64,000 bases of DNA, taken from Candidatus Pacearchaeota archaeon. GTDB lineage: Archaea > Nanobdellota > Nanobdellia > Pacearchaeales > GW2011-AR1. The stretch lies in the NCBI GenBank assembly GCA_041649755.1, contig JBAZMK010000005.1, positions 8,597 to 72,596 on the forward strand. The letters are read 5' to 3'. Numbering within the stretch: position 1 is the stretch's first letter; every line of letters begins with the position of its first letter. The translations under genes and the position numbers were made by a program. The notes below the pieces were generated by a model that did not search any database, was not told the DNA's origin, and saw only the letters and a program-made list of their open reading frames with translations. Below are positions 859 to 44,489 of this stretch, one piece after another.

Positions 859-887
859 GTTTAACTAAGGTTTAATGAGTTTTTAAC

Positions 888-2582: not shown

Positions 2583-2583
2583 T

Positions 2584-4324: not shown

Positions 4325-4467
4325 TTCCTTTCTTGAGGTCTTACAATATAATAAGCCTCAAGATAAGGGTCGTAATAGATCCTATCCCCCTTTCTTCTAG
4401 CTTTTAATGCATCAGTTTTATTTTTATAATATCTACGCCCATTATAAACAAAAATTTTTCCCATTCC

Positions 4468-6308: not shown

Positions 6309-6457
6309 TAGTGTGAATCACTCTTTTCACACCTCAACACCTCTCGACTTTATAAAAAAGAGAGGACACCTCATTTAAACCCTTTTCAAGAAACTTTGGT
6401 GAAAATACCACAAAAAGACTTAATAAGTGCAAAACCTACCAAAGATTATCAAAAGAA

Positions 6458-8820: not shown

Positions 8821-8844
8821 AAAGTTATATTGTAAAGAGGTTTA

Positions 8845-21656: not shown

Positions 21657-21816
21657 TGCTCCCACCGGGATTTGAACCCGGGTCTCCGCCGTTCTCCAAT
21701 GAATCTCAAAGAGATTATCGGTAGTGGTTCAAGCGAACCTGAAATTTATTGTCTCACCGACTAAAATTTCCCACCTCTTGAGAGGGCGGTATCCTTGGCC
21801 TCTAGACTATGAGAGC
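21657..21816 (-). tRNA. tRNA-Glu(CUC) candidate with ~87-nt intron at canonical 37/38 position; no encoded CCA
   Basis: Exon 1 (21816..21779) is GCTCTCATAGTCTAGAGGCCAAGGATACCGCCCTCTCA. Exon 2 (21691..21657) is CGGCGGAGACCCGGGTTCAAATCCCGGTGGGAGCA. The 7-bp acceptor pairs GCTCTCA/TGGGAGC, the T-arm is CCGGG-TTCAAAT-CCCGG, and the anticodon stem CCGCC/GGCGG forms only after the intron is removed. Loop is CUCUCAA. Isotype and intron boundaries need tRNAscan confirmation. Confidence 0.5.
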
Positions 21817-22387: not shown

Positions 22388-24136
22388 CTATTCCAAAGCA
22401 GCCTTTATTCTCCTAACACCCGAACTAGACGACTCTTCTTTCAATATCTTAAAATGTCCAAGCTCCCCTGTATTCTTAACATGGGGTCCTGCACAAATTT
22501 CCTTGCTAAAATCTCCTATAAAGTAAACCTTCACCTTCTCCCCATATTTGCTCTCAAAAACACCCTGAGCACCCTTCTTCTTTGCATCATCTAAAGACAT
22601 TTCTTCCATAACAACAGGTATACCTTCTGAAATCTTCTCATTAACAATCTTCTCAACTTCCTCAACTTCTTCTTTAGTCAATTTCCTGTCAAAATTAAAA
22701 TCAAACCTAATCCTCTCAGGGGTTATATTAGAACCCTTCTGATGAATATCTGGCTTATTCAAAACAACTCTCAAAGCCTGATTAAGAAGATGTGTCGCCG
22801 TATGAAGACGAGTAGTAGCCTCACTATTATCTGCAAGACCACTCTTAAATTTACCCGCAGAAGCCGTTCTTGACAGAGTCTTATGTCTTTCAAACTCCTC
22901 GTTAAAACCCTTTTCATCAACATTGATACCACTTTCTTTAGCCATCTCTCTTACCATCTCTATAGGAAATCCATAAGATTGAAAAAGCAAAAACGCATTC
23001 TTCCCGTCAACAACCTTCTTTTCCTTAGTTAACTTCTCAAAAAGACTCAATCCTTTTTCCAAAGTCTTCTCAAACCTCTCCTCTTCAAGATTTATCTCTG
23101 AAAAAACCCTTTCCTTATTCCTCTGCAAGACCTCATAATCGTCATAAATTTCAAAAACTTTTTCTGCAATAGGATTAATTAAATCAATTCCAACAAAACC
23201 GAGTTTCCTTAAATTAACAATCGCCCTCCTCAAAAGCCTTCTTAAAACATAACCTCTTTCGGTATTTGAAGGAACAACCCCATCAGCAATTATAAAAACA
23301 GAAGCTTTAACATGGTCAGCAATAATTCTCATTGTCCTTTCATTACCTTCATAGGACTTTCCGGACAAATGTTCTACTTCCTCAATAATCGGCTTCCACA
23401 TGTCCGCGAGATAATTATCATCCAACCCATTCAGAACCGCAATTGTTCTCTCCACCCCCATTCCCGTATCAATATTCTTTTGCCCCGCTTCAGAATAACC
23501 CCCCTTAGCGTCTTTTTCATACTGCATCAAAACATCGTTCCATATTTCAACCCAGTTCTCGTCCTCTGGATTAAAAATTTTAGGGGCTGGCTTGTGAGAC
23601 TTCCAGTAAAACATCTCTGTATCAGGTCCGCAAGGTCCAGCTCCCGCAGTTTCCCACCAGTTATCCTTTAAGTATACTATTCTTTCTTTAGGTATACCTA
23701 AAAAGTTCCAGATTTTATAAGATTCTAAATCCTTTTCGGACTTGTTGTCCCCTCCAAAAACAGAAACCGCCAGCCTTTCCTTAGGTAGCTTAAGAACATT
23801 TATCAGGAAATCAAAACTCCATTCAATAGCTTCTTTTTTAAAATAATCTCCTAAACTCCAGTTGCCTAACATTTCAAAGAATGTATGATGAAAAGAATCC
23901 CCTACATCGTCAATATCCCCCGTTCTAATGCACCTCTGGACATTAACCAACCTCTTGCCTTGAGGGTGCTTTTCCCCAAGCAAAAAAGGAACCAAAGGAT
24001 GCATTCCTGCAGTCGTAAAGAGAACCGTCGGATCATTTTCAGGAACAAGTGAAGAATTTTTCACCTCTTTATGCCCCTTAGACCTAAAAAATTCTATATA
24101 TTTCCTTATCAATTCTTTCCTTTCCATCAATTGCAA
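22388..24136 (-). CDS. alaS: Alanyl-tRNA synthetase, short form (catalytic + tRNA-recognition + editing domains, no C-Ala domain)
   Basis: Catalytic-domain motifs FTTAGMHPLVPF and RCIRTGDIDDVGDSFHHTFFEMLGNWSLGDYFK. Editing-domain motifs HTATHLLNQAL and CAGPH. Confidence 0.85.
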   Translation of the reverse strand: MQLMERKELIRKYIEFFRSKGHKEVKNSSLVPENDPTVLFTTAGMHPLVPFLLGEKHPQGKRLVNVQRCIRTGDIDDVGDSFHHTFFEMLGNWSLGDYFKKEAIEWSFDFLINVLKLPKERLAVSVFGGDNKSEKDLESYKIWNFLGIPKERIVYLKDNWWETAGAGPCGPDTEMFYWKSHKPAPKIFNPEDENWVEIWNDVLMQYEKDAKGGYSEAGQKNIDTGMGVERTIAVLNGLDDNYLADMWKPIIEEVEHLSGKSYEGNERTMRIIADHVKASVFIIADGVVPSNTERGYVLRRLLRRAIVNLRKLGFVGIDLINPIAEKVFEIYDDYEVLQRNKERVFSEINLEEERFEKTLEKGLSLFEKLTKEKKVVDGKNAFLLFQSYGFPIEMVREMAKESGINVDEKGFNEEFERHKTLSRTASAGKFKSGLADNSEATTRLHTATHLLNQALRVVLNKPDIHQKGSNITPERIRFDFNFDRKLTKEEVEEVEKIVNEKISEGIPVVMEEMSLDDAKKKGAQGVFESKYGEKVKVYFIGDFSKEICAGPHVKNTGELGHFKILKEESSSSGVRRIKAALE

Positions 24137-24151
24137 AAGAATTAAGAGTTT

Positions 24152-24529
24152 TTAAGATTTGGGATAACTATTCTCCGCCCAATTATTCAACTCTTCAATC
24201 TTCTCATTAATCCGCCTTAACTCTTCATCAATCTTATCATTCTTGGAATAATCCTTCATAAAATCTGCTTTAACTTCTTCCTCCCTTTTAAACTCCTTGG
24301 GGATTTCAACAACAGGCAACTTATTCTCAAAAGAACTAACATCACTCTTCAAGGAGTTTATTGTTTGATGAAGTTTCTTCTTTAAATCACTTTTTTGTCT
24401 TGAAAAAACAGCCAGTTTATGAAGATTTTTAAGAGAGTTAAGCAAATCTGCCTGACTTTTCAAAACATTTGCCTTACTCGCCCGATACTTTTCCAAACTT
24501 ATAGAAACATAGATTTCTTCTGAAACCAT
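24152..24529 (-). CDS. Hypothetical coiled-coil protein
   Basis: ORF with heptad-like charge pattern, directly downstream of the Pro-rich protein gene. Confidence 0.4.
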   Translation of the reverse strand: MVSEEIYVSISLEKYRASKANVLKSQADLLNSLKNLHKLAVFSRQKSDLKKKLHQTINSLKSDVSSFENKLPVVEIPKEFKREEEVKADFMKDYSKNDKIDEELRRINEKIEELNNWAENSYPKS

Positions 24530-25230
24530 TAAATCTGACTAAAGACATCGGAGTCAATTTCTGAAAGTCTCGCTTTTAATTTCTCTACTTCTTCTAACCA
24601 CCCCTTTATCTCCTCTTCCTCTTTTAATTTCACTTGATTAATCTTACTTATAATTCCTTCCATTTCTTTAATCTTAGTTTTCATCTGTTCAATATTTTTT
24701 CTAGCTAATTGAAACTTATCAATTCTTATAAAAACTGGCTCAGCATCTAAACAAGCCTTAGAAGTAACAGGAACATTAAAGTGAGGAGTAATTGGTTTTT
24801 GCTGAATTGTTTTAGGTTGAATTTTGGGTTTAGTATAAATGGGTGGAGTCGGTTTAGGGAGGGGTTTCTTTGGTGCTTGTGGGATAGCTCCTGAAGAAGA
24901 TTCGTCCATTATAGAACTCTTCCCAGGTATTGAAGGAATACTCACAACTTTTGGACTCTCTAAAACAGGAGGAGGAGAAACTTTGTTTGTTCCTCCATCC
25001 TTGATTACCTCTTCTTCCTTAGGAGAAAAATTATCACTTATCGCAGACTTAACTATTTCCTGATTGAGCCCCTCATTTTTAGAATTACTGGGGATGGACG
25101 GAAGCTCAGGAACTTCATACTCCCCAGCACTACTTAAATTACTCTCAACAGAAACATCAGGAAGACTTGGTGCCAAAGGAATCTCAGGAACTTTTTCTTT
25201 CTTTTTAAACAACCCCATATAGATTATCAA
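24529..25230 (-). CDS. Hypothetical Pro/Ser-rich protein with C-terminal coiled coil
   Basis: Low-complexity PxP-rich central region and a C-terminal coiled coil (KIKEMEGIISKINQVKLKEEEEIKGWLEEVEKLKARLSEI). Confidence 0.4.
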   Translation of the reverse strand: MIIYMGLFKKKEKVPEIPLAPSLPDVSVESNLSSAGEYEVPELPSIPSNSKNEGLNQEIVKSAISDNFSPKEEEVIKDGGTNKVSPPPVLESPKVVSIPSIPGKSSIMDESSSGAIPQAPKKPLPKPTPPIYTKPKIQPKTIQQKPITPHFNVPVTSKACLDAEPVFIRIDKFQLARKNIEQMKTKIKEMEGIISKINQVKLKEEEEIKGWLEEVEKLKARLSEIDSDVFSQI

Positions 25231-25317
25231 CTAAATTCTTTTTTATAGGTTTATAGTAATTATGAAATGACTACATAACAAGGAAAGATATTTAAAACAG
25301 ATAAATTTTTATCTCAG

Positions 25318-25998
25318 ATGCAGGTCAAACTTCTACATGATTTCGTCGAGGAAATGGCAGGTCCTGGAACAGGAAAAATAGCCGAAATTTTATTTAGCAA
25401 AAGAGATGTAAACGAATTTCTAATTGCTAAGAAGATGAACCTAACTATAAACCAAGTCAGAAATATATTATACAAACTTTCAGCAGAAGGTTTGGTCTCT
25501 TTCGTCAGAAAAAAAGATAAAAGAAAAGGATGGTATATCTATTTCTGGACCCTAAATACAGAAAAATGCCTCGTAAAACTTGAACAGAACCTACTTAAAA
25601 AAATAGAAGAATACAACATGATACTAAGTAATAGAGAATTAAAAAGATTTTATGTCTGTAAGTCCTGCGGAATCGAAGTAAACGAACCAAAGGCTCTTGA
25701 AAATGGATTCACCTGCGAAGAGTGTGCTGAAGTCTATGAATTATCCGAAAATAAAGAAGTAATCAGAGACACAAAAACGAAGATTACAAAAACAGAAAAA
25801 GAACTAAAACTTATCCAAGAAGAGTTGGAAAAACACAGAAAAAAAGAATCAGACAAGAAAAAAAGACAAGAAAAAAAGAATAATAAGAAAGAAAAGAAGA
25901 CTCCAAAGAAAACCGCAAAAAAACCAAAGAAAACCGCAAAAAAGAATAATAAGAAAAATCAAAGTAAGAAAAAGAAAATAGCTAGAAAAAAGAAATAA
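25318..25998 (+). CDS. tfe: Transcription factor E (TFE/TFIIE-alpha homologue) with Lys-rich C-terminal tail
   Basis: Winged-helix domain (IAKKMNLTINQVRNILYKLSAEGLVSFVRKKDKRKGWYIYFW) and zinc ribbon (CKSCGIEV...FTCEECAEVYE). The tail carries KKTAKKPKK repeats. Confidence 0.75.
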   Translation: MQVKLLHDFVEEMAGPGTGKIAEILFSKRDVNEFLIAKKMNLTINQVRNILYKLSAEGLVSFVRKKDKRKGWYIYFWTLNTEKCLVKLEQNLLKKIEEYNMILSNRELKRFYVCKSCGIEVNEPKALENGFTCEECAEVYELSENKEVIRDTKTKITKTEKELKLIQEELEKHRKKESDKKKRQEKKNNKKEKKTPKKTAKKPKKTAKKNNKKNQSKKKKIARKKK

Positions 25999-26018
25999 TC
26001 TAATCAAACCTAAATAAA

Positions 26019-26849
26019 ATGAGAAGAAAATTTTTATCAAGTTACACAAGAATATTAATTTTAATAAATGTAATAATCTTTTTTTTATCATTAATTCTCT
26101 TTGGAATCTATGGAGAAAAATTCTTTGAATTATTCGCACTAACTCCTAAATTATTTTTCTCGGGTTATATCTGGACGGCCCTGACAAGTATGTTTTTGCA
26201 CTCCCCAAGCGGGATCTTATCAATACATCTTCTTGCAAACATGATTTCTCTATTCTTTATCGGAACTTTCGTCGAACATCTTGTCGGTAGAAAAAGATTT
26301 TTAGGAATTTACATTGCAAGCGGAATATTCGCAGGAATATTTTTTGCTACACTCTCTTTCTTCTTTGGGAATTCAGAAATTGGAGCAAGACTTTTTGGCT
26401 CTCCTAATATTATCGCCTTGGGAGCATCAGGAGCTATATTTGGTCTAGCAGGATTAATCGCCGTCCTAACACCAAGAAATAAAATCTATCTAATTGCAGG
26501 TCCATTAATCGCAATAATAATCCAATCTATCCTTGAAGTAACAATCTCTAACCCATCTATCTTATCCTTGATAAATTTCATCGTTCTTGCTTATTTTCTA
26601 TTCTCCTTATACACTTTTTTCTCTTTCAACAAAAACTTAAAAAAATTCGCACTGCCTATTGAAATGCCATTCTACATCCTCCCAATAGTAGCAATCGTCC
26701 CCCTTGTAATAATCGGATTGTTTATTGACCTGCCAATTGGAAACTCCGCACATCTAGGGGGACTCATCGTAGGAGTCTTATACGGATTCTACTTAAGAAA
26801 AAAATACCCGAAAAAATCAAAAATGATCAGAAACTATTTTTCAAAATAA
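26019..26849 (+). CDS. Rhomboid family intramembrane serine protease
   Basis: Multi-TM protein with catalytic GASGAIFGLAG (GxSG) and downstream AHLGGLIVG (His). Confidence 0.8.
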   Translation: MRRKFLSSYTRILILINVIIFFLSLILFGIYGEKFFELFALTPKLFFSGYIWTALTSMFLHSPSGILSIHLLANMISLFFIGTFVEHLVGRKRFLGIYIASGIFAGIFFATLSFFFGNSEIGARLFGSPNIIALGASGAIFGLAGLIAVLTPRNKIYLIAGPLIAIIIQSILEVTISNPSILSLINFIVLAYFLFSLYTFFSFNKNLKKFALPIEMPFYILPIVAIVPLVIIGLFIDLPIGNSAHLGGLIVGVLYGFYLRKKYPKKSKMIRNYFSK

Positions 26850-26894
26850 CTCAAGAACAATAATATTTAAAATAAACCTAAAAGAATCTATTTA

Positions 26895-27452
26895 ATGGAA
26901 TGTTCAAAAAATTTAATAAAATTTATATTAGATGACCTGACCAACGGGAGAACATTCAAAAGAACCTGCATAAGTTATGCCCGAATATCTCTTGGTATTC
27001 ACGAAGATACGGCTGAAGAGCTTTATCAAGAATTATGCCTAAGAGCACTATCAAAAAACAGATATACCCCAAGAAAAGGAGAACCTAAAGGGTATTTATA
27101 CCAGGCGTACAGAAACTTATGTAGGGGGCATCTAAGAAACAAAAGAAACAGAAAAGAAACCTTAGAATCAAGTCTATTTGATAACTCTGAAGGAGAAGAT
27201 TCTCTTCTAGAAGTTATAGATAGCGAAACCGTCTCGCCACAAGAATTACTAACTCACCAAGAAGACGAAGAGACACTACAAAAAGTTATAGGAACTCTTA
27301 GAGAAAGAAATCAAAAAGTTCTAATAAAAAGATACTTTGAAGGAAAAAGCCATAAAGAAATAGCCCAAGACACAGGATATAAAGTCAGTTCAGTAAAAAG
27401 CAGAATTTACAGGTCAATAAGAAAACTGAGAAGTATCACGTGGCCTGATTAA
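26895..27452 (+). CDS. ECF-type sigma-70-like factor (regions 2 and 4)
   Basis: Region-2-like TAEELYQELCLRAL...PKGYLYQAYRNLCRGHLRNKRNR matches the AEDLxQExFL...WLxxIARNxxIDxxR pattern. Region-4 HTH LQKVIGTLRERNQKVLIKRYFEGKSHKEIAQDTGYKVSSVKSRIYRSIRKLR. Confidence 0.7.
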   Translation: MECSKNLIKFILDDLTNGRTFKRTCISYARISLGIHEDTAEELYQELCLRALSKNRYTPRKGEPKGYLYQAYRNLCRGHLRNKRNRKETLESSLFDNSEGEDSLLEVIDSETVSPQELLTHQEDEETLQKVIGTLRERNQKVLIKRYFEGKSHKEIAQDTGYKVSSVKSRIYRSIRKLRSITWPD

Positions 27453-27482
27453 GTTTAAAAAAGACTAACGTTTAATCAGCTT

Positions 27483-28064
27483 ATGAAAAGAAAAATTTTT
27501 GTCAAAGAAAACTATTCTCTCTGCCTAAGGTATCTAAGAGAAATCAAATGGCATATCGTATTATCTCTCGGGATTTTTAGCTTCATATTCATTTTAGGTT
27601 TCTTATTCCCAATTCTCTTCAGAGAAGAAATACTCTCACTAATTTCAGAACTAATGTTTCTTGTAGAAGGTAAAAATCTTTATGAAATGATTATCTTTAT
27701 CTTTTTAAATAACCTAAAAGTAAGCTTCATTGCAATGATTTCCGGAATTTTCATAGGACTTTTTCCCTTAATAACCTTAATCGTTAATGGCTATGTGCTT
27801 GGTTTTGTAGCAAGAGAGTCTGTTGAACTGCAAGGGCTATCAATTTTATGGAGACTCCTGCCACATGGGATTTTTGAACTTCCAGCAGTCTTTTTCTCAA
27901 CAGGAATAGGATTAAAAATTGGATTGGACTTATTCAAAAAAGACTGGAAGAAAAAAATAAAACACAACTTTAATGAAGGATTGAGATTCTTTATCTCCGT
28001 CGTCATTCCTTTCTTAATAATCGCAGCATTAATAGAAAGTGCACTAATATTTTACTTTAGTTAA
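27483..28064 (+). CDS. SpoIIM/DUF95 family integral membrane protein
   Basis: Signature LLPHGIFELPAVFFSTGIGLKIG and 4-5 TM helices. The gene starts 31 nt after the sigma-like gene. Confidence 0.6.
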   Translation: MKRKIFVKENYSLCLRYLREIKWHIVLSLGIFSFIFILGFLFPILFREEILSLISELMFLVEGKNLYEMIIFIFLNNLKVSFIAMISGIFIGLFPLITLIVNGYVLGFVARESVELQGLSILWRLLPHGIFELPAVFFSTGIGLKIGLDLFKKDWKKKIKHNFNEGLRFFISVVIPFLIIAALIESALIFYFS

Positions 28065-29250
28065 AATCATTAAGTGTCTTCTGCTTCCCATAATTTTTCA
28101 ACAGCCAGGAATTCTCATTCAACTCCTCTAAAGATATCTTAATTTTTCTCTTTAAATAACTCAAAACATTTTGAAGACTATCAAATCTCTCGGGAGGATT
28201 AGAGAATGCTCTCCTCGTACACTCTCTGACAATACCCACCCCAAGAGGAGCGTAATATTCGGGCAAAACCTCTCTAAATACCAAAACTGTCGCCTGCCTC
28301 CTCATCTTATCAAAATATTCTGCCACAGGAAGACGCATAGCATAATACCCCCCAGTAACATTTGAAGCATAATCTTTCCTTCCAAAAAAAGTCTCATGAT
28401 CACTCGTCACACTTTTAGAATTTGTTAAAGAATTTGAGTTAAACCAGACCTCCACGACTTCAAAAGAAAACTTTCCAGGAAGAAATAACACCTTCATATA
28501 ATTCCCTAAAAAATTCCCTGAAAATACCAAAAACTCATTTAATTCAGGGTAGTATTTTATTTTTTCAAGTAGATGCTTTGAAATGATATCATCAGTAGAG
28601 GTTATTGCCCATCTGGTAGGAACCATCTTTCTTGAGGATTTTAAACCCAGTAAACCAACAGAAAGAAGTTTTTGTATATGGTCTACGTCAATAGAAGAAT
28701 AAAGTTCTCTCATTGCTGTTATCGCAAGAGAATCGCTATCGGAAGTCAGATAATCTACCTTCTTTAAAACCTTTGGGTTCTCTTCCAACAAGACCCTGTC
28801 AATCGGAGCAGAGTTCATTATCGGACGAAAAACAGAATCAAGATTAACCCCAAACTTCGGTTTCTTCTTTAAAAAAAATTCCGTCAGTAAAGGTTTAGAA
28901 GACAAAGCCAATTCCTGTATTATCTTTTTAAAATTGCCTCTGGACTTAATCTCTATCTTATCCCTTCCATAAACAAGTCTAGAACGCACTCGTAGAATAT
29001 TCTCAATAGAAAAATTATTACCTGACCATTCTTCCGCCGTTGAAAAACCAGCAAGAGAACTTCCATCACTCGGTGCAAAAACACCTGAGTTAACAAAAGG
29101 ATATCCAACCCTTCCGACAAAAACTTCTGGAGGACTCTCACCGGAGAAATGAATTTTCGGTTTAGGAAACGCCTCTCTGAATCTGCTTAAAATTTTGCAA
29201 GGTCCCCCACAAAAACCCTTCCCCTTACAACGAATACATAGATTATCCAT
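28057..29250 (-). CDS. Nre-family-like protein (archaeal DNA-repair-associated, N-terminal C4 zinc finger)
   Basis: N-terminal LCIRCKGKGFCGGPCKI zinc-finger-like start and ~400 aa length, as in archaeal NreA/NreB. Assignment is tentative. Confidence 0.45.
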   Translation of the reverse strand: MDNLCIRCKGKGFCGGPCKILSRFREAFPKPKIHFSGESPPEVFVGRVGYPFVNSGVFAPSDGSSLAGFSTAEEWSGNNFSIENILRVRSRLVYGRDKIEIKSRGNFKKIIQELALSSKPLLTEFFLKKKPKFGVNLDSVFRPIMNSAPIDRVLLEENPKVLKKVDYLTSDSDSLAITAMRELYSSIDVDHIQKLLSVGLLGLKSSRKMVPTRWAITSTDDIISKHLLEKIKYYPELNEFLVFSGNFLGNYMKVLFLPGKFSFEVVEVWFNSNSLTNSKSVTSDHETFFGRKDYASNVTGGYYAMRLPVAEYFDKMRRQATVLVFREVLPEYYAPLGVGIVRECTRRAFSNPPERFDSLQNVLSYLKRKIKISLEELNENSWLLKNYGKQKTLNDFN

Positions 29251-29891: not shown

Positions 29892-30386
29892 ATGAAAAAA
29901 GGTGATCTTAAATTCAAAAAAGGTTTATCTCCAGTTATCGCTACAGTTCTTTTGATAGTTTTGGTATTCGTTTTATTTGCATTAATCTTCTTATGGATGC
30001 GCGGGCTCATAAGTGAACAAATAGAAAAAAACGAACAGGCGATTGAAAATGTTTGCCCCTCAGTCACCTTTCAGGCAGATTTAGTCAGAGAGGGTTCAAA
30101 TTATTTTATAGAAGTAATTAATCGTGGAAGCGTCCACATACACCGCCTTGAAGTAAAATTAATTGACAGCCAAGGAGACTCAGAAATATATTCGTTCAAT
30201 GAAGCAGATGTTTTAATGGTAGGTGTCGGCGAAACCCTAAAAAAAGATATTGATTTAACTATGGATAGCGGCGATACAGCCACAGAAATTATAGTCTACC
30301 CTATTATTGCAGGAACAGTAAAAGGCGGTTCCACAAACAAACCCTACACCTGTATAGACATGGGTCAAACAATAAATGTAATTTAA
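29892..30386 (+). CDS. Archaeal type IV pilin-like protein (class III signal peptide)
   Basis: N-terminus MKKGDLKFKKG|LSPVIATVLLIVLVFVLF, i.e. KG cleavage site plus hydrophobic helix. Confidence 0.65.
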   Translation: MKKGDLKFKKGLSPVIATVLLIVLVFVLFALIFLWMRGLISEQIEKNEQAIENVCPSVTFQADLVREGSNYFIEVINRGSVHIHRLEVKLIDSQGDSEIYSFNEADVLMVGVGETLKKDIDLTMDSGDTATEIIVYPIIAGTVKGGSTNKPYTCIDMGQTINVI

Positions 30387-30413
30387 CTCAAGATAAATGA
30401 AAGGAGGTCAAAA

Positions 30414-30896
30414 ATGAAAAATAATAAAAAAGGAGTCTCAGCAGTAATCGCTACAGTCTTAATTATCTTAATTACAATTGCAGCGGTCACAATTATATGG
30501 GCAGCAATTATTCCGATGATTAAAGGTTTAATAGAATCCGGAACTACTTGCCTTGATGTAATGAAAGAGGTAGAACTAGGAGACAGAACTTGCTTAGTAG
30601 ATAATGATACTGTCACTGTTCAGGTAGTAAGAGGTTCTACGTCTTTTGAATGGGCAGATATTCAAGTTAGGGTAGAAGATGAAGAAGGAAATACTGCATC
30701 TTCTTACTTAGTCGCTGATGAAGATGAACCTCTTGAAGATCTTCCAGGAAGAAACGAAGCTCAAACATTTACTTTGAATATCACAGGTCTTAATAGCGAA
30801 TTGGTTAACGTCGCAATTGCCCCTGTTGTTCAGGTTGATGGAAAACAGGAAAACTGCGGAGTTACATCCACAAAGAAATTAATAGCTTGTCCATAA
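30414..30896 (+). CDS. Archaeal type IV pilin-like protein (class III signal peptide)
   Basis: MKNNKKG|VSAVIATVLIILITIAAV. SD-like AGGAGGT upstream. Confidence 0.65.
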   Translation: MKNNKKGVSAVIATVLIILITIAAVTIIWAAIIPMIKGLIESGTTCLDVMKEVELGDRTCLVDNDTVTVQVVRGSTSFEWADIQVRVEDEEGNTASSYLVADEDEPLEDLPGRNEAQTFTLNITGLNSELVNVAIAPVVQVDGKQENCGVTSTKKLIACP

Positions 30897-30983
30897 TTAA
30901 ATTATTTAATCGGCTCCTTATTTTTTGAGCCTTTTTATTTTATTCTTGCAAAACTATATAAAGGAAAAAATTCTTATTTTTGA

Positions 30984-31532
30984 ATGAGGGGATTAATTAA
31001 AAAAAGAGGTCAGGTTTGGGTTGAAACAGTAATATACACTCTCATTGGTCTGGCGATCATAGGTCTTGTTCTCGCCGTAGCTAAACCCAACATTGACAGA
31101 AAAAAAAGCGAGATGATAATTGAGCAATCAATAGAATCAATAACGAACATAGACTCAAAAATAAGCGAGGTTCTTTCGGCACAGGGAAATCAAAGAGTAA
31201 TAGAATTAAAAATAAGCGAAGGAAATTTTTACATTGACTCTGGGAATAATAAAATATCTTGGATTATACAATCAAAATTTCAATATAGCGAAAAAGACGA
31301 AGAAATTCCTTTGGGAACTTTCTTCGTAACGACTACTGGAGACGAGAAAAACGATTTATGGGAGATAAAAATTGAGAAGCAATACTCGAACATAGACTTG
31401 AGATTCAATAATGAAAACATCGGAGAAAAGCAAATTAGTCCAGCACCAACCCCTTACAAAATGACTATAATCAACGATGACAAAGATGAAGAAAGCGAAG
31501 GAAAAACCATCGTAAATATAGGAATTAACTAA
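30984..31532 (+). CDS. Prepilin-like protein with bacterial-style G|QVWVE (Glu at +5) N-terminus
   Basis: MRGLIKKRG|QVWVETVIYTLIGLAIIGLVLAV. Confidence 0.55.
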   Translation: MRGLIKKRGQVWVETVIYTLIGLAIIGLVLAVAKPNIDRKKSEMIIEQSIESITNIDSKISEVLSAQGNQRVIELKISEGNFYIDSGNNKISWIIQSKFQYSEKDEEIPLGTFFVTTTGDEKNDLWEIKIEKQYSNIDLRFNNENIGEKQISPAPTPYKMTIINDDKDEESEGKTIVNIGIN

Positions 31533-31566
31533 TAAGATTAATAAAGCTTAATTTCTTAAAAATAAA

Positions 31567-33093
31567 ATGGGTGAAATAAAAATTAATCTTAATCCTCAAA
31601 TACCTGTAATCCCAAAATTTGAAGATAAAACAAAAATCAACGTTAGATATGTGGTTATTGAACCCTACGTTTCAATTCACATATACTGGGACAAAGAACT
31701 GCAGGAGGTCATTTATGAAGTTGAAGAACCAATTTTATCAAAAGAAGAACAGGAAAACTTTAGAAGGATAGAATCTGCAGTAAAAGAAGTTGTAGATGTC
31801 AGCATGTTAGGAGAAGAAAAAACCCATGAAGACCTGCTGGACTACATAGATAAAACTTCAAAATTAATAATATCTGAACTAAGTCTGAAGGTTACAGAAG
31901 AGTCTTATAAAAAAATCTTCTATTATTTATACAGAGACTTTTTGGGTTTAAACGAAATAGAACCTATGATGAGAGACTATTTTATAGAAGACCTTGAGTG
32001 CAATGGAGTAAACGAACCCCTTTATATTGTTCATAGAGCATTCAGAAACCTAAAAACAACTATAAAATTTACAGACATAGATGAATTATCAAACTTTGTA
32101 GAAAAACTTGCACAAAAAACTGGAAGATACATCTCTTACGCTTCACCAATATTAGATGGAAGTCTTCCTGATGGGTCAAGAGTCAACGCAACCTACACAA
32201 AAGATATTTCTTCAAAAGGCCCGACATTTACTATACGTAAATTCACGAAAACACCTTGGACACCGACACAACTAATGGGCTTCCACGCTTTAAGCCCTGA
32301 AATGCTGGCATACTTTTGGATTACATTACAATATCAGTCAAACCTCATGATTGTCGGCGGAACAGCATCAGGAAAAACAACCCTCCTTAATGCAATCGCT
32401 TTCTTCATACCACAGGAAAACAGAGTTGTCTCAATAGAGGACACAAGAGAACTAAACCTTCCAAGAGAAAACTGGCTTCCATCCGTAGTCAGAAGCGGAA
32501 TATCTGCACAAGGCGTCGGTGCCGTTGATATGTTTAGTTTATTAAGAGGTTCTTTCAGACAAAATCCAGATTATGTAATTGTAGGGGAAGTAAGAGGAAA
32601 CGAAGCTTCAGTATTATTTCAAGGAATGGCTTCGGGACACGCGTCCATTTCAACTATGCACGCAGACTCCGTAGAATCCTTAATAAGAAGACTTGAAACA
32701 CCACCAATTAGTCTAAGTCCAATGCTTGTAAACGGTCTCGACACTGTAGCAATTATGACTCACGCAATAGTAGATGGAAGAGAAACAAGAAGACTAAGAA
32801 AAATTGTAGAGATTGTAGAAGTTAAAAACGATGGAAGTGTGACAACCGTAACCCCTTTTGTATGGAACCCTGCAGATGACAAGTTCTATTATTCAGAAGA
32901 GAGCATAATGTTTTCAAAAATTTCAGAGAAATACGGAATACCTGTATCGGAATTAATTAAAGAATTTGACACCAGAACAAGACTCTTATACAAGATGTAT
33001 AACCAAAAAGTTTTGGGCTACGAAGAAGTTCAGAAAATAATAAATGAATATCAAAAAAATCCTCAGGCAGTAATTAAAAGGTTTAACTTATAA
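31567..33093 (+). CDS. Type II/IV secretion-system ATPase (FlaI/ArlI/PilB/TadA family)
   Basis: Walker A GGTASGKTT, Asp box SIEDTRELNL, Walker B/His box NPDYVIVGEVRGNEA ... ISTMHADS. Confidence 0.85.
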   Translation: MGEIKINLNPQIPVIPKFEDKTKINVRYVVIEPYVSIHIYWDKELQEVIYEVEEPILSKEEQENFRRIESAVKEVVDVSMLGEEKTHEDLLDYIDKTSKLIISELSLKVTEESYKKIFYYLYRDFLGLNEIEPMMRDYFIEDLECNGVNEPLYIVHRAFRNLKTTIKFTDIDELSNFVEKLAQKTGRYISYASPILDGSLPDGSRVNATYTKDISSKGPTFTIRKFTKTPWTPTQLMGFHALSPEMLAYFWITLQYQSNLMIVGGTASGKTTLLNAIAFFIPQENRVVSIEDTRELNLPRENWLPSVVRSGISAQGVGAVDMFSLLRGSFRQNPDYVIVGEVRGNEASVLFQGMASGHASISTMHADSVESLIRRLETPPISLSPMLVNGLDTVAIMTHAIVDGRETRRLRKIVEIVEVKNDGSVTTVTPFVWNPADDKFYYSEESIMFSKISEKYGIPVSELIKEFDTRTRLLYKMYNQKVLGYEEVQKIINEYQKNPQAVIKRFNL

Positions 33094-33136
33094 TTCTAAA
33101 AACATTAATAAACAACAATTTCTTTGCTTTTAAGGA

Positions 33137-33298
33137 ATGGCCAACATAGTATTAATAAAAGAGTGGGTTGAATCTATGGAAAAATATGTTCTCAATCTGG
33201 AAAGAGCTATCAAGAAAGGAGATAAAAACGAAGCAAACCGAATGAGGGTTTTCATATTTGATCTGCATAAAAAAATTGAGGAGGCACTAAAGGAATAA
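33137..33298 (+). CDS. Unannotated 53-aa ORF (MANIVLIKEWVESMEKYVLNLERAIKKGDKNEANRMRVFIFDLHKKIEEALKE) between the ATPase and TadC-like genes
   Basis: Hand-translated. It fills the only gap in the pilus operon, and GAGGAGG lies near the next gene's start. Confidence 0.25.
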   Translation: MANIVLIKEWVESMEKYVLNLERAIKKGDKNEANRMRVFIFDLHKKIEEALKE

Positions 33299-33299
33299 A

Positions 33300-34613
33300 A
33301 TGTTTGAAGAATTAAAGAAAAACATTGAACAGGAAAAAAAGATTATCGCAGATGTGCAGTCTATTCTAAGCGGAATGAAAAGCAACCCTTCCCTTAGAAC
33401 TTTCTATCTTTCCAGCCTATCTTCTCTAACCCACCAATTAAATCTTCTAAATAAAGCCGTTCCAGAACTGCTTAAAGAAGAATCCCCATTAAAAAAATTC
33501 ACTGAAAAATCCGAAGAAACAAAAAAAGACCTCACAAAAAGAACTCTACAAAAAGAAGAACCCATGAAAAAAGAAATTAATAAAAACGTTGTAAAGATTA
33601 GTTATATCTCCCCCTCCACTAAAGAAAAGGAATTTATTACATTAAATAAAGAAGACAAAAAGGCTTTTCTTGAAAAATTAAAAATCTCTGAAGAAAATCT
33701 TAAAAAAATAAGACAAGAAGGAGGCTTAGAAAAGAAAAGGAAAATAAAGATAAGCCAGCCACTTTTTTACACAAAATTTTCAAACCGTTTTTTTAGAGAA
33801 ACTTCAGAAAAACTATCCCCTAAATTTAATGGGTTATCCCAGGATTTAAAAAAAGGTAATATGAATATTCTGTTGGCATCTTATATTTCCTTGGCTCTAA
33901 TGTCAACAACACTCTCATTTATAGCAGGAATGATAATTTTTATTTTTCTTGTAATTATGAATCTAAGTAATTTAATACACTTCTGGATTCCTTTCGGTCT
34001 TGCGGGGGCGACTATGACTCTTTTTTATTTCTACCCTGCAAGCGTAGCCAATTCTGTCCAAAAGAGAATTACACAAGAACTCCCCTTCGCAACGATTCAC
34101 ATGGCGGCAATTTCAGGCTCAGATATAGAACCAACAAAAATCTTCAAGATTATATCTGCTTCTAAAGAATACCCAAACATCGCAAAAGAGATTCACAAAA
34201 TTACTACTCAGATTGAAATCTATGGATATGACTTAGTAACCTCATTAAAAAACGTCGCATCAAGAACATCAAACAAAAAACTTTCAGAGTTATTCTCAGG
34301 ACTCGCAACAAATATAAGCACGGGAGGGGAACTTAAAACCTATCTTGAAAGTAAAGCTGAAAACTTCCTGTTAGATTATAGATTAGAAAGACAAAAATAT
34401 TCAGAAACGGCAGGAACTTTTATGGACATATATATCTCCATTTTAATTGCAGGTCCACTCGTACTAATGATGATGTTTATCGTGATGAATGTTGTAGGTT
34501 TAAGCTTAGGAGGTTTGGGCATGGAAGCGATACTCCTACTAAGCGTAGGCTTAATCGTAATAGTAAACTTAATATTTATAGCAGTATTAAATATGAAACA
34601 GCCTAACGTATAA
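33300..34613 (+). CDS. TadC/FlaJ-like membrane platform protein (T2SSF domain) with long N-terminal coiled-coil region
   Basis: C-terminal half has the GspF/TadC-like helix pattern and TM bundles (ISGSDIEPTKIFKIISAS...ELFSGLATNISTGGELKTYLESKAE). Confidence 0.6.
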   Translation: MFEELKKNIEQEKKIIADVQSILSGMKSNPSLRTFYLSSLSSLTHQLNLLNKAVPELLKEESPLKKFTEKSEETKKDLTKRTLQKEEPMKKEINKNVVKISYISPSTKEKEFITLNKEDKKAFLEKLKISEENLKKIRQEGGLEKKRKIKISQPLFYTKFSNRFFRETSEKLSPKFNGLSQDLKKGNMNILLASYISLALMSTTLSFIAGMIIFIFLVIMNLSNLIHFWIPFGLAGATMTLFYFYPASVANSVQKRITQELPFATIHMAAISGSDIEPTKIFKIISASKEYPNIAKEIHKITTQIEIYGYDLVTSLKNVASRTSNKKLSELFSGLATNISTGGELKTYLESKAENFLLDYRLERQKYSETAGTFMDIYISILIAGPLVLMMMFIVMNVVGLSLGGLGMEAILLLSVGLIVIVNLIFIAVLNMKQPNV

Positions 34614-35437
34614 TGAAAAAGAAAAAGTTTTTTGGGATAATTCCTGCCCTTTTTGTAGTAGCAGGTTCTATAACTCTTTTTGGAATAAAAAACCCCCTGA
34701 CATATTTTTTAATAATTATTGCACTAATTCTTGCAATCCTGCCTTTTGTAATAGATCTAATTCTAAGTCAAAACAAACAAAGAGAAAAAGAAGAAATGTT
34801 TCTTGCATTCTCAAGGGATTTAGTTGAAACTGTTAAATCAGGAACTCCTGTAAGCAAAGGCATAATCAACTTGAGAAATAGGAATTATGGTGCACTAAGC
34901 CCCCATGTCTCAAAACTTGCTAATCAAATTTCTCTCGGGAGAACTCTGACGGAAGCATTGCAAACATTCTCCCGCGAAACGGGAAGCAAAGTAATTGCAA
35001 GAGCGGTAAGCCTCATATCTGAAGCAGAGAGATCTGGTGGAAGAATAGAAACGATAATAGAATCCGTAGCACTTTCTGTAAATCAAATAGATAATTTAAA
35101 AAAAGAAAGAAAAGCCGCTGTATCAAATTTAATCACTCAAGGTTACATAATCTTTATTGTTTTTATAATCATTATGCTCGTCCTGGAATTTAAAATACTC
35201 CCTTTAGTTTCAGATTTATCATCTGGAGGAACGGGTCTTGGAGTTGAAGTCCAAAAAATGGATCCTGAAGAATTCTCAATGCCCTTATTAGTAACTATCC
35301 TCGTCCAATCATTTTTCTCGGGTCTCGTCATAGGAAAAATATCTGAAGGAAATTTAAAAGCGGGAATCAAACATTCATTTATATTATTAGCCCTGACTCT
35401 CCTCGTTACAACTGGGGCAAAAGTATTATTTAACTGA
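34613..35437 (+). CDS. TadC/FlaJ-like membrane protein, second T2SSF-domain gene
   Basis: GSKVIARAVSLISEAERSGGRIETIIESVA resembles a T2SSF repeat. Its ATG overlaps the upstream stop, so the platform looks split into two genes. Confidence 0.6.
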   Translation: MKKKKFFGIIPALFVVAGSITLFGIKNPLTYFLIIIALILAILPFVIDLILSQNKQREKEEMFLAFSRDLVETVKSGTPVSKGIINLRNRNYGALSPHVSKLANQISLGRTLTEALQTFSRETGSKVIARAVSLISEAERSGGRIETIIESVALSVNQIDNLKKERKAAVSNLITQGYIIFIVFIIIMLVLEFKILPLVSDLSSGGTGLGVEVQKMDPEEFSMPLLVTILVQSFFSGLVIGKISEGNLKAGIKHSFILLALTLLVTTGAKVLFN

Positions 35438-43091: not shown

Positions 43092-44489
43092 ATGAAAAAC
43101 AAAATAGAAGAATTTACTTTAGAATTTTTTGATAACCTAAAGTGCAAAATAAAGGAAGAAAATGGGAATTTTATAGTTGAATCGGTTCCAAAAAGCTTTG
43201 AGGATATATTTGGGAAAAAATCACCTTACAAAGTCAGCTTTTCAAAGAACAAAGAAGGAACAGAATTTGCAGGGGAAGGAAGTAACCTCTTTAATGCAAT
43301 AAATAAATACTTAGAGAATACGGGAAAAACCACTCTTTTAAAAATTGACTTTGATGTCGACCCCAAAAAAGAAATAAGCAAAGCGGTATCTTTTAAAAAT
43401 TGTAGCATAGAAAACATAACAAAAAAACACCGGAACAATTACTTTTCAAGATTCACATTTAGAACAACTTTTAGTTCCCTTAGCGAAATAAATCAAATTA
43501 TAAATGAAATCTATATACATCAGGGAAAAATTATAAAAGGAAATTTATCGGGCTACAAAATTCTTGAAGGAGAACCTGAGGAGGCATCAACAGAGCATTT
43601 AGAAGAAAGTTACAAAATCGCAAAAGAAGAGCTTAAAAATTTAATAAAAGAAAAAACCGAAAGTATAAGTAGGAGCTTAAAAGAAAAATTAGAAAAAGAA
43701 GTAGAGGGAATAAAAGAGTATTATAATAACTATCTTCAGGAATTTGGAGGAGACCTAAATAGTTCTTTAGAAAAGATAAAAGAAATTGAACTTCAGATTA
43801 GACTGGCTGAAAAAAATGAAGCAGAATCTTTAAAAGTAAGATTAGAAAAATTAAGAAAAAATCTTTTAAAAATGGCCGACGACGAATCAAAGAACAAAAT
43901 TATAAGGGAACAGGATTCGGCAATAAAAGGTGCAATTCACAAACATAGTTTAAGTATTGAAAACAAATTAATAAATACAACCATAATCTATTATCCTCTT
44001 TTCCTGTTTAATTTATTCATAAAAGGAGATGGCTCAGGTAGATTCTTTGAAATGAGTTATGACCCTCTAACAAAACAAATCAGCAAACTCCATTGCGAAA
44101 GTTGCAATAAAGAAATCTCAAAACTAAACTTATGTTCTTCAGGGCATATCTCTTGTGAAGAGTGTTTAGACAAGTGCGAAGAGTGTAGAAAAAGCTTCTG
44201 TAAAAAATGCCTGACAAGGCGTTGTTCTATATGTGGAAAAAAAATGTGTAAAAATTGTGCACTAACTTGCCTAACTTGCAGGAAATATGTCTGCAAAAAC
44301 GACTTAAGAAAAGACAATGTCACTGGAGATGAAAAATGCCTAAACTGCCTTCGCCCTTGCACCAAATGTAACCAGCTCACAAGCCCAGAATACCTTAAAG
44401 AAGCCTCAAACGGCTCAAAAATCTGTCAAAAGTGCCTTGGAGAAGAAAAAAGAAAGAAAGTAATAAAAAAAATCTTTGAAAATGAATAA
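43092..44489 (+). CDS. Hypothetical protein with central coiled coil and C-terminal multi-Cys zinc-ribbon cluster
   Basis: C-terminal ~110 aa contain more than 20 Cys in CxxC pairs (CESCNKE...CEECLDKCEECRKSFCKKCLTRRCSICGKKMCKNCALTCLTCRKYVCKN...CLNCLRPCTKCNQ). The gene follows the SNF2 gene by 34 nt. Confidence 0.5.
   Translation: MKNKIEEFTLEFFDNLKCKIKEENGNFIVESVPKSFEDIFGKKSPYKVSFSKNKEGTEFAGEGSNLFNAINKYLENTGKTTLLKIDFDVDPKKEISKAVSFKNCSIENITKKHRNNYFSRFTFRTTFSSLSEINQIINEIYIHQGKIIKGNLSGYKILEGEPEEASTEHLEESYKIAKEELKNLIKEKTESISRSLKEKLEKEVEGIKEYYNNYLQEFGGDLNSSLEKIKEIELQIRLAEKNEAESLKVRLEKLRKNLLKMADDESKNKIIREQDSAIKGAIHKHSLSIENKLINTTIIYYPLFLFNLFIKGDGSGRFFEMSYDPLTKQISKLHCESCNKEISKLNLCSSGHISCEECLDKCEECRKSFCKKCLTRRCSICGKKMCKNCALTCLTCRKYVCKNDLRKDNVTGDEKCLNCLRPCTKCNQLTSPEYLKEASNGSKICQKCLGEEKRKKVIKKIFENE

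Follow-up and report, generated by a model that had tools for sequence, protein, structure and literature searches.

This study was concerned with the gene for an ECF-type sigma-70 family protein in the window, the 64,000-nucleotide stretch of Candidatus Pacearchaeota DNA that was analyzed. The gene lies within a conserved array, AlaRS / TFE-rhomboid-[sigma]-SpoIIM / Nre, in which the sigma gene interrupts the rhomboid-SpoIIM pair (Table 1). The gene for transcription factor E alpha (TFE-alpha) ends 897 nt upstream of the sigma start with the rhomboid gene in between, and the Nre gene is convergent with the SpoIIM gene and overlaps it by 8 nt. The original prediction, which was made from the letters of the sequence, had placed TFE about 1 kb upstream of the sigma gene and a SpoIIM/DUF95 gene 31 nt downstream. 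Both neighbors were recovered in these places, and the second spacer was corrected to 30 nt after the sigma stop codon. The SpoIIM protein matches PF01944 at 91.2 bits (cut-off 26.9) over residues 34-186 and profile positions 3-159 of 163. TFE-alpha scored 106.8 and 91.3 bits against the NCBIfam TFE models, both below the curated thresholds (180 and 149.5).

Table 1. Features of the sigma locus, with positions in the window.
Feature	Position	Strand	Basis
Archaeal transcription factor E alpha (TFE-alpha)	25318..25998	+	PF02002, 52.7 bits
Rhomboid intramembrane protease	26019..26849	+	PF01694, 86.6 bits; synteny
TATA-like box TTTAAAATA of sigma gene	26866..26874	+	Starts 29 nt upstream of sigma ATG; read from sequence
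ECF-type sigma-70 family protein	26895..27452	+	185 aa; Pfam r2, r4 and r4_2 and TIGR02937 above cut-offs
Sigma-2 domain, residues 1-96	26895..27182	+	AlphaFold2 model, subfamily alignments, column comparison with bacterial ECFs
Sigma-2/sigma-4 linker, acidic, disordered, residues 97-114	27183..27236	+	pLDDT <50 at residues 101-110
Sigma-4 helix-turn-helix domain, residues 115-182	27237..27440	+	PF08281 match at residues 127-178, 51.6 bits; model helices
TATA-like box TTTAAAAAA of SpoIIM gene	27454..27462	+	Starts 29 nt upstream of SpoIIM ATG, within the 30-nt spacer
SpoIIM/DUF95 multipass membrane protein	27483..28064	+	193 aa; PF01944 match
Archaeal Nre protein	28057..29250	-	Nre_N 253.6 bits, Nre_C 115.9 bits

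The sigma protein exceeded the curated cut-offs of four profile models: Sigma70_r4_2 (PF08281; 51.6 bits, cut-off 25.7), Sigma70_r4 (PF04545; 37.6 bits, cut-off 24.1), Sigma70_r2 (PF04542; 35.0 bits, cut-off 24.0) and the whole-protein model TIGR02937 sigma70-ECF (85.4 bits, cut-off 42.9). Thus, the sigma-70 regions 2 and 4 that the original prediction had read in this 185-aa ORF are confirmed, including by the hmmscan for PF04542 and PF08281 that it had proposed. None of the specific ECF equivalog or subfamily models of NCBIfam reached its own cut-off, and Pfam gave no match to Sigma70_r3 or Sigma70_r1. With 185 aa, a short linker and neither region 1.1 nor region 3, the protein has the architecture of an ECF sigma factor. 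It is identical to an NCBI record named [quoted passage not shown] its best match in a sequence search was AlgU (E about 3e-7), and no paralogues of it were found within the window.

The AlphaFold2 model of the protein (mean pLDDT 86) consists of four helices in sigma-2 (residues 2-17, 20-33, 37-53 and 64-96), a disordered linker, and four helices in sigma-4 (residues 115-132, 137-148, 153-160 and 164-182). The top Foldseek matches in the PDB were all ECF sigma factors, namely M. tuberculosis SigH/SigL, E. coli sigmaE, AlgU and SigW, and the sigma-4 domain aligned with 2h27, the structure of sigmaE region 4 on -35 DNA, with a target-normalized TM-score of 0.78. Sigma-2 carries an N-terminal motif of its subfamily (D14, N17-G18, F21, A29, G34) and a region 2.2-like motif (A40-E41-E42..Q45-E46).

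The group IV bacterial ECF sigma factors (E. coli sigmaE/RpoE, P. aeruginosa AlgU, SigH/SigL, B. subtilis SigW) share the sigma-2/sigma-4 layout without region 1.1 or region 3, have hallmark motifs in common with the window protein, and provide its best sequence and structure matches. However, the window protein differs from them in several respects. First, sigma-2 begins in its subfamily with remodelled helices, which have a D-[LM]-x-N-G-[RK]-x-F motif and about 9 residues deleted, and the subfamily departs from bacterial ECFs at conserved positions equivalent to F54, I77, A78 and R176 of E. coli sigmaE. Secondly, no bacterial RNA polymerase is in evidence in the host, in which an archaeal one is expected. 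Third, the gene is preceded by an archaeal TATA box instead of an autoregulated ECF promoter. Lastly, no co-encoded anti-sigma factor was found. An autoregulated promoter and a co-transcribed anti-sigma gene are typical, though not universal, among ECFs, and the sigma locus has neither.

The TATA box of the sigma gene is located at -29 in the 45-nt spacer upstream of the gene, and TATA-like hexamers upstream of the 65 window genes cluster at -29 to -26. The sigma ortholog in a related lineage, L001, has the same box as TTTAAAATA at -29, and similar boxes precede 8 of 9 subfamily sigma genes. No ECF-type -35/-10 motif (AAC...CGT-type bipartite) was seen by eye in the 120 nt upstream of the sigma gene. 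From its sequence and position, the box appears to be an archaeal promoter with the geometry of a leaderless mRNA.

The setting of the gene is archaeal. The window also encodes GatD/GatE, an archaeal-type ProRS, archaeal pilins and an intron-bearing tRNA. Three independent assemblies, from NCBI, ENA and Logan data, show the arrangement of the sigma locus, and L001 is syntenic across the locus with a sigma protein about 48-49% identical to that of the window. These archaeal flanks, assemblies and relative sustain the earlier claim of a sigma-like factor in a genuine archaeal genome, and the independent assemblies and the divergent syntenic relative exclude a chimera as well as a contaminant or misbin, the objection that the claim itself had raised. 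The earlier reading as a horizontally acquired bacterial regulator can be kept only in part. The GC content of the sigma gene (0.348), its GC3 (0.253) and its codon usage are indistinguishable from those of its neighbors, and a bacterial transfer, if there was one, therefore took place long ago; the comparison of GC and codon usage that had been proposed as a check for transfer gave no anomaly. A recent transfer was rejected on this composition, and the archaeal TATA/leaderless promoter and the distinct subfamily also speak against it, whereas acquisition as an ancient event is plausible. An origin from a virus or mobile element was likewise rejected, since no sigma relatives were found in IMG/VR and bacterial phages gave only generic ECF-level matches (25-35% identity).

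The subfamily of the window protein is small and fast-evolving, comes from archaeal contexts and has its own N-terminal motif. An exhaustive HMMER search returned 8554 ECF-like matches, and the motif was present in only about 15 clusters; word-indexed protein searches recovered just 2-4 subfamily members, and the rest came from the exhaustive search. A GTDB genome scan with a two-sequence profile gave just five bacterial ECFs, which were chance pattern matches, and a 4-sequence alignment scanned against metagenomes matched 10 loci, of which nine had high GC (0.52-0.70) and were taken as bacterial. The sampling of contexts was limited to nine for sigma and three for SpoIIM. Archaeal markers (S19e, L31e, Nre, an archaeal ThrRS editing domain, etc.) were present at 8 of the 9 sigma loci. 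In a neighbor-joining tree with 200 bootstraps, a comparison with bacterial ECFs that had been suggested earlier, the subfamily stood apart from the bacterial proteins as a distinct group (bootstrap 85-100). Within the subfamily the tree is star-like, and it does not distinguish between a single ancestral origin and two separate origins of the sigma-SpoIIM adjacency seen in window/L001 and in L028. The sigma-4 models PF08281 and PF04545 matched all 14 members compared, and the sigma-2 model PF04542 matched 12 of the 14 at E <= 0.01. Hallmark columns (AED..Q, N74, R81, P115, E123, YxEIA and GTVKSR) occur in the subfamily at frequencies like those in bacterial ECFs.

The interpretation favored here, which we consider probable, is that the gene encodes an intact two-domain ECF-type sigma protein, a long-standing resident of Pacearchaeota and probably a DNA-binding regulator, of which SpoIIM is not a partner. 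The host TBP/TFB appears to direct transcription of the gene from the TATA box at -29, which would give a leaderless mRNA. The protein is most likely a sequence-specific transcription regulator that would bind DNA via the helix-turn-helix of sigma-4. Sigma-2 may use its conserved region 2.2-like surface to dock on another protein, for which the RNA polymerase clamp coiled-coil (Rpo1/A') would be the best candidate. The archaeal Rpo1 clamp coiled-coil corresponds structurally to the beta-prime clamp helices of bacteria, and TFE and Spt5 use this site. A replacement of TBP/TFB by this protein as initiation factor is unlikely.

Other interpretations were weighed, and they are taken here in order of decreasing probability. 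In the first, the subfamily would be a functioning hybrid of bacterial and archaeal parts, in which sigma-2 docks on the archaeal clamp coiled-coil while sigma-4 reads an upstream DNA element, so that the protein would modulate or redirect TBP/TFB-dependent initiation; in a few lineages, SpoIIM and the rhomboid might restrain it at the membrane. As a combination, this is unlikely.

The second concerns the SpoIIM neighbor. The original prediction had compared the pair to a sigma/anti-sigma operon, and on this interpretation the sigma protein and SpoIIM, perhaps with the rhomboid, would form a membrane-tethered module in which SpoIIM sequesters the sigma protein and proteolysis by the rhomboid frees it. 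The two genes are co-oriented, with a 30-nt spacer in which no oligo-T terminator is obvious, and the sigma gene falls exactly between a gene for an intramembrane protease and one for a multipass membrane protein, a pair whose translation is coupled in relatives. L001 preserves the adjacency, as does the distant L028, in which the genes upstream of sigma have changed and identity is 30% for sigma and 59% for Nre. However, the likeness to the class I/ZAS membrane anti-sigma factors RseA, RsiW and MucA, which act through regulated intramembrane proteolysis, is one of layout only, with a membrane-protein gene after the sigma gene and an intramembrane protease nearby. SpoIIM is a multipass protein with about 24 cytoplasmic residues ahead of its first membrane helix, as against the about 80-90 aa of a cytoplasmic anti-sigma domain, which often has an H-x3-C-x2-C zinc motif; PF01944 was the sole Pfam match, with no anti-sigma family (zf-HC2, RskA or other) at E <= 1, and the HxxxCxxC motif is absent from the SpoIIM sequence. 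In addition, the local protease is a rhomboid and not an S2P, and the sigma-SpoIIM pairing is not conserved in the sigma subfamily.

The SpoIIM gene of the window also has a TATA-like box of its own (TTTAAAAAA) at -29 in the spacer, and therefore a predicted promoter of its own; a box lies at -29 in L001 and L028 as well (3/3 sigma-SpoIIM loci). The co-occurrence of the pair, which had been proposed as a check, is limited to three of the nine subfamily loci. At the other six, neither SpoIIM (none within several kb) nor the rhomboid was found, and the sigma gene precedes YhbY-S19e, tRNA-synt_1b or small ORFs; L028 also has no rhomboid nearby. No flanking gene family was shared between sigma context classes. 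Conversely, SpoIIM orthologues are vastly more numerous than the sigma subfamily; 1217 homologues were found, and Pacearchaeota and Nanoarchaeota hold many of them. The three related lineages sampled (L029-L034) carry rhomboid-SpoIIM-Nre without sigma at this site, with the SpoIIM start overlapping the rhomboid stop by 4 nt, and related sigma-less genomes carry TFE-rhomboid-SpoIIM-Nre. Protein-cluster records further suggest one genome type (P0016/P0388) in which both genes are present and unlinked, the shared contig being recognized by its length only. Since the whole array from AlaRS to Nre is equally conserved, the adjacency of sigma and SpoIIM is background synteny only. Thus, SpoIIM is an ordinary syntenic, chance neighbor that is not supported as a partner, the operon-like reading is not upheld, and a membrane-tethered module is distinctly unlikely. 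The SpoIIM protein belongs by HMM score to the same family as B. subtilis SpoIIM/DUF95 (PF01944, COG1300), and a sequence search against solved structures gave nothing meaningful. In contrast to B. subtilis, archaea to our knowledge do not sporulate and have no SpoIID/SpoIIP partners. The archaeal DUF95 members are uncharacterized, housekeeping-like membrane proteins, and in sigma-less relatives of the window genome SpoIIM shows coupling to the rhomboid gene.

Third, the gene could be left over from an old bacterial transfer and be decaying or without function. It is the fastest-evolving gene of its neighborhood: between the window and L001 the sigma proteins are 48% identical, compared with 68-87% for most neighbors and 55% for the rhomboid, and dN is 0.42, compared with about 0.1-0.2 for the neighbors and 0.40 for the rhomboid. 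The subfamily is also patchily distributed, its gene position is variable, and sigma-2 fell below detection in 2 of 14 members. Moreover, the P-x-G-T turn of region 4.2, conserved elsewhere, is lost in the window/L001 lineage, and the position equivalent to R176 of E. coli sigmaE, which we take to be a -35 contact, is variable in the subfamily; therefore, constraint may be weak or specificity may be shifting. Decay is nevertheless improbable. The ORF is intact and is 185 aa long in both orthologues despite saturated synonymous sites, and pN (0.32) is well under pS (0.77), although with this saturation only pN < pS can be stated. In addition, the hallmark motifs are kept among members that share only 25-31% identity, and the gene has a canonical promoter and a confidently predicted fold.

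Fourth, the protein could be a true initiation factor for the archaeal RNA polymerase, recognizing and melting promoters independently of TBP/TFB. The retention of both sigma-2 and sigma-4 across the subfamily, the bacterial-ECF-like frequencies of the hallmark columns in region 2.2 (core-binding) and regions 2.3/2.4, and the Rpo1 counterpart of the beta-prime clamp helices are consistent with such a role. Opposed to these are the TATA box in place of an ECF-type -35/-10 upstream of the sigma gene itself, the overwhelming predominance of TATA boxes at about -27 among window genes, and the fast evolution of the protein with variable residues at its expected -35 contacts. The beta-flap tip helix, which anchors sigma-4, also differs in the archaeal RNA polymerase. 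We consider this role to be highly doubtful.

Lastly, the protein could act as an effector on the RNA polymerase of a bacterial host. Some Pacearchaeota have been proposed as bacterial episymbionts. An association with bacteria has been suggested for some Pacearchaeota and Woesearchaeota (Castelle et al. 2021, Front Microbiol, PMC8204110), and the bacterial-like core-binding motifs retained in the sigma protein would suit such a function. This is very improbable, as no signal peptide or secretion-linked domain was seen in the sequence, the gene lies among housekeeping genes and not among secretion or host-interaction genes, and delivery of the protein is unsupported. A bacterial contaminant, misbinned contig, assembly chimera or virus/mobile-element cargo, which has only the bacterial affinity of the protein family in its favor, is almost certainly wrong given the three independent assemblies and the divergent syntenic relative, the archaeal genes on both sides, the host-like composition, and the search of IMG/VR and phages that gave generic matches only.

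Sigma-70 genes in DPANN archaea have been known since 2021, and NCBI already names the window protein as sigma-70. The earlier study reported such genes as family fam00359 with misbinning excluded, most prevalent in Woesearchaeota, found no anti-sigma factors for them, and left open their function alongside TBP/TFB/TFE (PMC8204110). The window protein fits the description of fam00359 (sigma-70-like, Pacearchaeota/DPANN, no anti-sigma), the two having been compared by description only. For fam00359, no subfamilies, promoters, evolutionary rates or gene neighborhoods were described (PMC8204110). New in this study are the subfamily with its own motif, the inference of an ancient transfer, the TATA box at -29, and the recognition of the SpoIIM adjacency as synteny.

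Bacteria have sigma factors as their defining initiation factors, and archaea rely on TBP/TFB/TFE. Therefore, a conserved and expressed sigma-like protein in an archaeon would pose the question whether both sets of parts cooperate, and this question of the compatibility of bacterial and archaeal parts had already been raised in 2021. Our analysis places the sigma gene as an old, domesticated archaeal resident with a predicted archaeal promoter, in a subfamily that has no conserved partner gene and for which SpoIIM is not supported as an anti-sigma candidate. The about 15 subfamily sequences and the confident structural model provide a resource for work on binding to the archaeal RNA polymerase.

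The sigma-70 regions 2 and 4 claimed in the original prediction were confirmed by profile searches of the sigma ORF. Sigma70_r4_2 (51.6 bits, cut-off 25.7), Sigma70_r4 (37.6 bits, cut-off 24.1) and Sigma70_r2 (35.0 bits, cut-off 24.0) of Pfam, and the NCBIfam superfamily model TIGR02937 sigma70-ECF (85.4 bits, cut-off 42.9), all scored above their curated thresholds, and none of the specific ECF subfamily or equivalog models of NCBIfam matched at its own cut-off. Among solved structures, ECF sigmas such as P. aeruginosa AlgU come nearest in sequence. The AlphaFold2 model, with a 69-sequence alignment as input, had a mean pLDDT of 86 and consists of N-terminal helices at residues 2-17, 20-33, 37-53 and 64-96, an acidic disordered linker at 97-114 and four further helices within 115-182. 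The top Foldseek matches to this model in the PDB were all ECF factors (M. tuberculosis SigH and SigL, E. coli sigmaE, AlgU, SigW and BldN).

The setting of the locus is archaeal and is not an artefact of contamination or misbinning. NCBI already records the identical protein as [quoted passage not shown]; its contig there is 81 kb long. Gene order is identical in independent ENA (80.7 kb) and Logan (7 kb) assemblies and is also found in L001, a relative whose sigma is just 49% identical. Archaeal genes flank the locus: TFE-alpha, Nre, GatD/GatE, an archaeal-type ProRS, pilins with an archaeal class III signal and a tRNA with a long intron. The GC and codon-usage comparison proposed as a check for horizontal transfer did not set the gene apart: its GC (0.348), GC3 (0.253) and codon-adaptation score (0.72) are within the range of 19 other window genes.

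Several other features were recorded in the window and at related loci (see table). The tRNA has an implied intron of ~88 nt and received no ARAGORN call. The archaeal type IV pilus-like locus is conserved in L001, and type I restriction-modification genes are present on the reverse strand. A giant Laminin_G_3 protein lies just upstream of the sigma gene in L008, another sigma locus; giant proteins of this kind at the cell surface may be connected with symbiosis. Two long ORFs had no Pfam match at E <= 1e-5.

Features of the window and of related loci
Locus	Feature	Position	Strand	Details
Window	ORF without Pfam match	888-2582	-	564 aa
Window	Type I restriction-modification genes	2584-6063	-
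Window	HsdS specificity subunit	2584-3834	-
Window	HsdM methylase	4468-6063	-
Window	tRNA	21657-21816	-	Rfam, complete, 46.2 bits, spread over 160 nt
Window	AlaRS-to-Nre array	22388-29250
Window	Rhomboid	26019-26849		276 aa
Window	Sigma TATA box, TTTAAAATA	26866-26874	+	starts exactly at -29
Window	Sigma ORF	26895-27452	+	185 aa
Window	SpoIIM TATA box, TTTAAAAAA	27454-27462	+	starts exactly at -29, within the spacer
Window	SpoIIM/DUF95 ORF	27483-28064	+	193 aa; PF01944, 91.2 bits
Window	Type IV pilus-like locus	29892-35437
Window	Three pilin-like ORFs	29892-31532		class III signal-type N-termini
Window	T2SSE-family ATPase	31567-33093
Window	Two T2SSF-family membrane proteins	33300-35437
Window	ORF without Pfam match	43092-44489	+	465 aa
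Window	Large secreted-type protein	56550-59573	+	1007 aa; Laminin_G_3/concanavalin-like domain
L008	Laminin_G_3 protein	1-7184		3607 aa
L008	CRS1/YhbY-like gene	8681-8935		downstream of sigma
L012	CRS1/YhbY-like gene	788-1039		downstream of sigma
L027	CRS1/YhbY-like gene	6671-6925		downstream of sigma
L028	SpoIIM	6574-7356		260 aa

TATA-like hexamers were counted upstream of 65 ATG-initiated window genes. They cluster at -29 to -26, with 40 at these four positions against ~1-2 per position elsewhere, a pattern read as the signature of leaderless transcripts. This peak makes it probable that most genes of this Pacearchaeota genome have individual promoters and give rise to leaderless mRNAs. The sigma and SpoIIM genes each have such a box; L001 has the same boxes, also at -29, and L028, a distant locus with sigma upstream of SpoIIM, has TATAAA at -29 ahead of SpoIIM. 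A comparable box is found 20-30 nt upstream of eight of nine subfamily sigma genes. Inspection of the sequence by eye revealed no ECF-type -35/-10 motif upstream of sigma, whose promoter is of the archaeal type.

The protein belongs to a small, fast-evolving subfamily in archaeal contexts. When 1.84 billion representative proteins were searched exhaustively with HMMER, 8554 matched at E <= 1e-3, of which only the query and its L001 orthologue fell below 1e-30. About 15 clusters, 25-31% identical to the window protein, align over its full length. Their N-termini have in common the signature F-[IL]-x-x-D-[LM]-x-N-G-[RK]-x-F-[YK] and, compared with bacterial ECFs, a deletion of ~9 residues. The members include a second Pacearchaeota protein from NCBI. 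Archaeal marker genes are present at eight of the nine sigma loci with readable neighbourhoods: ribosomal proteins S19e and L31e, RuBisCO and YhbY in L008, L012 and L027, ThrRS with an archaeal editing domain in L009, whose sigma-tRNA-synt_1b-ATPase layout recurs in L026, and Nre in the window, L001 and L028. Neighbour-joining set the subfamily apart from the closest bacterial ECFs (bootstrap 85-100), but its interior was star-like.

Of 14 members, all had a recognisable sigma-4 and 12 a recognisable sigma-2. The column comparison indicated that bacterial hallmarks are kept at similar frequency (A-E-D..Q of region 2.2; N74, R81, P115, E123 and L135; Y-x-E-I-A and G-T-V-K-S-R of region 4.2). 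The subfamily deviates at the equivalents of E. coli sigmaE F54, I77, A78 and R176, and the P-x-G-T turn is lost in the window/L001 lineage. No gene of the neighbourhood has diverged faster between the window and L001 than sigma (48% identity, dN 0.42). Rhomboid comes next (55%, dN 0.40); other neighbours are 68-87% identical with dN of about 0.1-0.2. Both sigma ORFs nevertheless have 185 codons for amino acids, and pN (0.32) is far under pS (0.77, saturated); the gene has been kept over a long divergence.

The sigma gene recurrently heads strings of housekeeping genes. In three other DPANN lineages (L008, L012 and L027), it lies directly upstream of a CRS1/YhbY-like RNA-binding gene, followed by S19e in all three and L31e in L008 and L027. 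In two others, it directly precedes a class Ib aminoacyl-tRNA synthetase gene.

The original prediction placed a SpoIIM/DUF95 gene 31 nt behind sigma and likened the two to a sigma/anti-sigma operon. The family assignment was correct and the spacer, as read from the sequence, is 30 nt. The operon analogy found no support, because SpoIIM has its own TATA box, no anti-sigma domain and no conserved pairing with sigma: SpoIIM appears to be its neighbour and not its partner. That the two form a regulatory module is improbable for several reasons. First, SpoIIM orthologues are far commoner (1217 matches; >100 clusters with 48-80% identity, many of them labelled Pacearchaeota or Nanoarchaeota) than the sigma subfamily, with only ~15 clusters. 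Second, the pair adjoins in the window, L001 and L028, but not at the other six subfamily loci, where the genes downstream of sigma are YhbY-S19e-L31e (three loci), tRNA-synt_1b (two) or small ORFs (one) and no SpoIIM was found within the fetched flanks. Third, when all ORFs lying up to 3 kb from sigma at the nine loci were compared with one another, the three context classes had no family in common. Fourth, SpoIIM matched no anti-sigma Pfam family, and just ~24 residues precede its first hydrophobic segment. Lastly, no SpoIIM occurs within 8 kb of the sigma of cluster P0016, and the longest contig recorded is 85,093 bp for both this cluster and SpoIIM cluster P0388; the matching length suggests a shared contig, and with it one genome type carrying both genes unlinked.

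Related lineages without sigma also argue against a module. The window and L001, L029-L034 contain a strongly conserved Pacearchaeota array: AlaRS(-), two small coiled-coil-like ORFs(-), TFE-alpha, rhomboid, SpoIIM(+) and Nre(-). Three lineages (L029-31, L032-33 and L034) keep this order without sigma, with SpoIIM 50-60% identical, and the window/L001 lineage has sigma between rhomboid and SpoIIM. Since the whole array is equally conserved, the sigma-SpoIIM adjacency is no stronger than background synteny. What favors a module is L028, where sigma again precedes SpoIIM despite different genes upstream of sigma; an inserted glycosyltransferase gene and Nre follow. Its identity to the window is 30% for sigma, 44% for SpoIIM and 59% for Nre, and the Nre comparison places it with lineages lacking sigma at the SpoIIM site. 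The simplest reading is that sigma lay next to SpoIIM ancestrally, that two lineages have kept it there and that in a third it was lost or relocated. Sigma may also have inserted independently at the same site in the L028 and window/L001 lineages, and for this reason a module was still given a slight chance. The L028 SpoIIM has a ~70-aa N-terminal extension with two extra hydrophobic segments.

In the lineages without sigma, the rhomboid stop codon lies within a 4-nt overlap (ATGA) with the start of SpoIIM. The overlap points to translational coupling of these two genes and perhaps to a functional link. The window rhomboid has 9-aa and ~52-aa insertions, both common to L032; the longer is hydrophobic and probably adds membrane helices. 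L001, the window's closest relative, has the short form, as do L029 and L034, and rhomboid identity is 55% for window-L001 versus 69% for L001-L029. This pattern is at odds with the trees of TFE and Nre and points to replacement of an allele, or to parallel deletion, directly adjoining the sigma gene.

The sigma fold and hallmark motifs are intact and no partner gene is conserved. The sigma-4 helix-turn-helix would bind DNA in double-stranded form, in the manner of sigmaE region 4 in PDB 2h27, to which the model aligns with a target-normalised TM-score of 0.78. Sigma-2 would contact a protein through its conserved, region 2.2-like face, and the archaeal clamp coiled-coil is the obvious candidate since it is the structural counterpart of the bacterial target of region 2.2. 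Together with the archaeal promoter and long retention, these points favor a regulator of TBP/TFB-dependent transcription, a mechanism to which we would give nearly even chances. A true initiation factor, a host-directed effector and a relic each seem less likely. Since the DNA-contact positions vary and the gene evolves fast, its target specificity may be shifting.

The MiST2 count of 2009, which covered 67 complete genomes of archaea, included no ECF factor from them (PMC2808908), and sigma is presented as exclusively bacterial in a 2018 review of archaeal transcription (PMC7289017). That DPANN archaea, and Woesearchaeota above all, carry sigma-70 genes (fam00359) was described by Castelle et al. 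2021, who excluded misbinning, found no anti-sigma factors and called the control mechanism unclear (PMC8204110). The sigma gene noted in the original prediction is confirmed and the interpretation given there holds in part, but that study and the NCBI annotation had already made ECF-like sigmas of DPANN archaea known. To the role of sigma in archaea, which it otherwise makes no more testable, this locus contributes a well-defined subfamily and a structural model.
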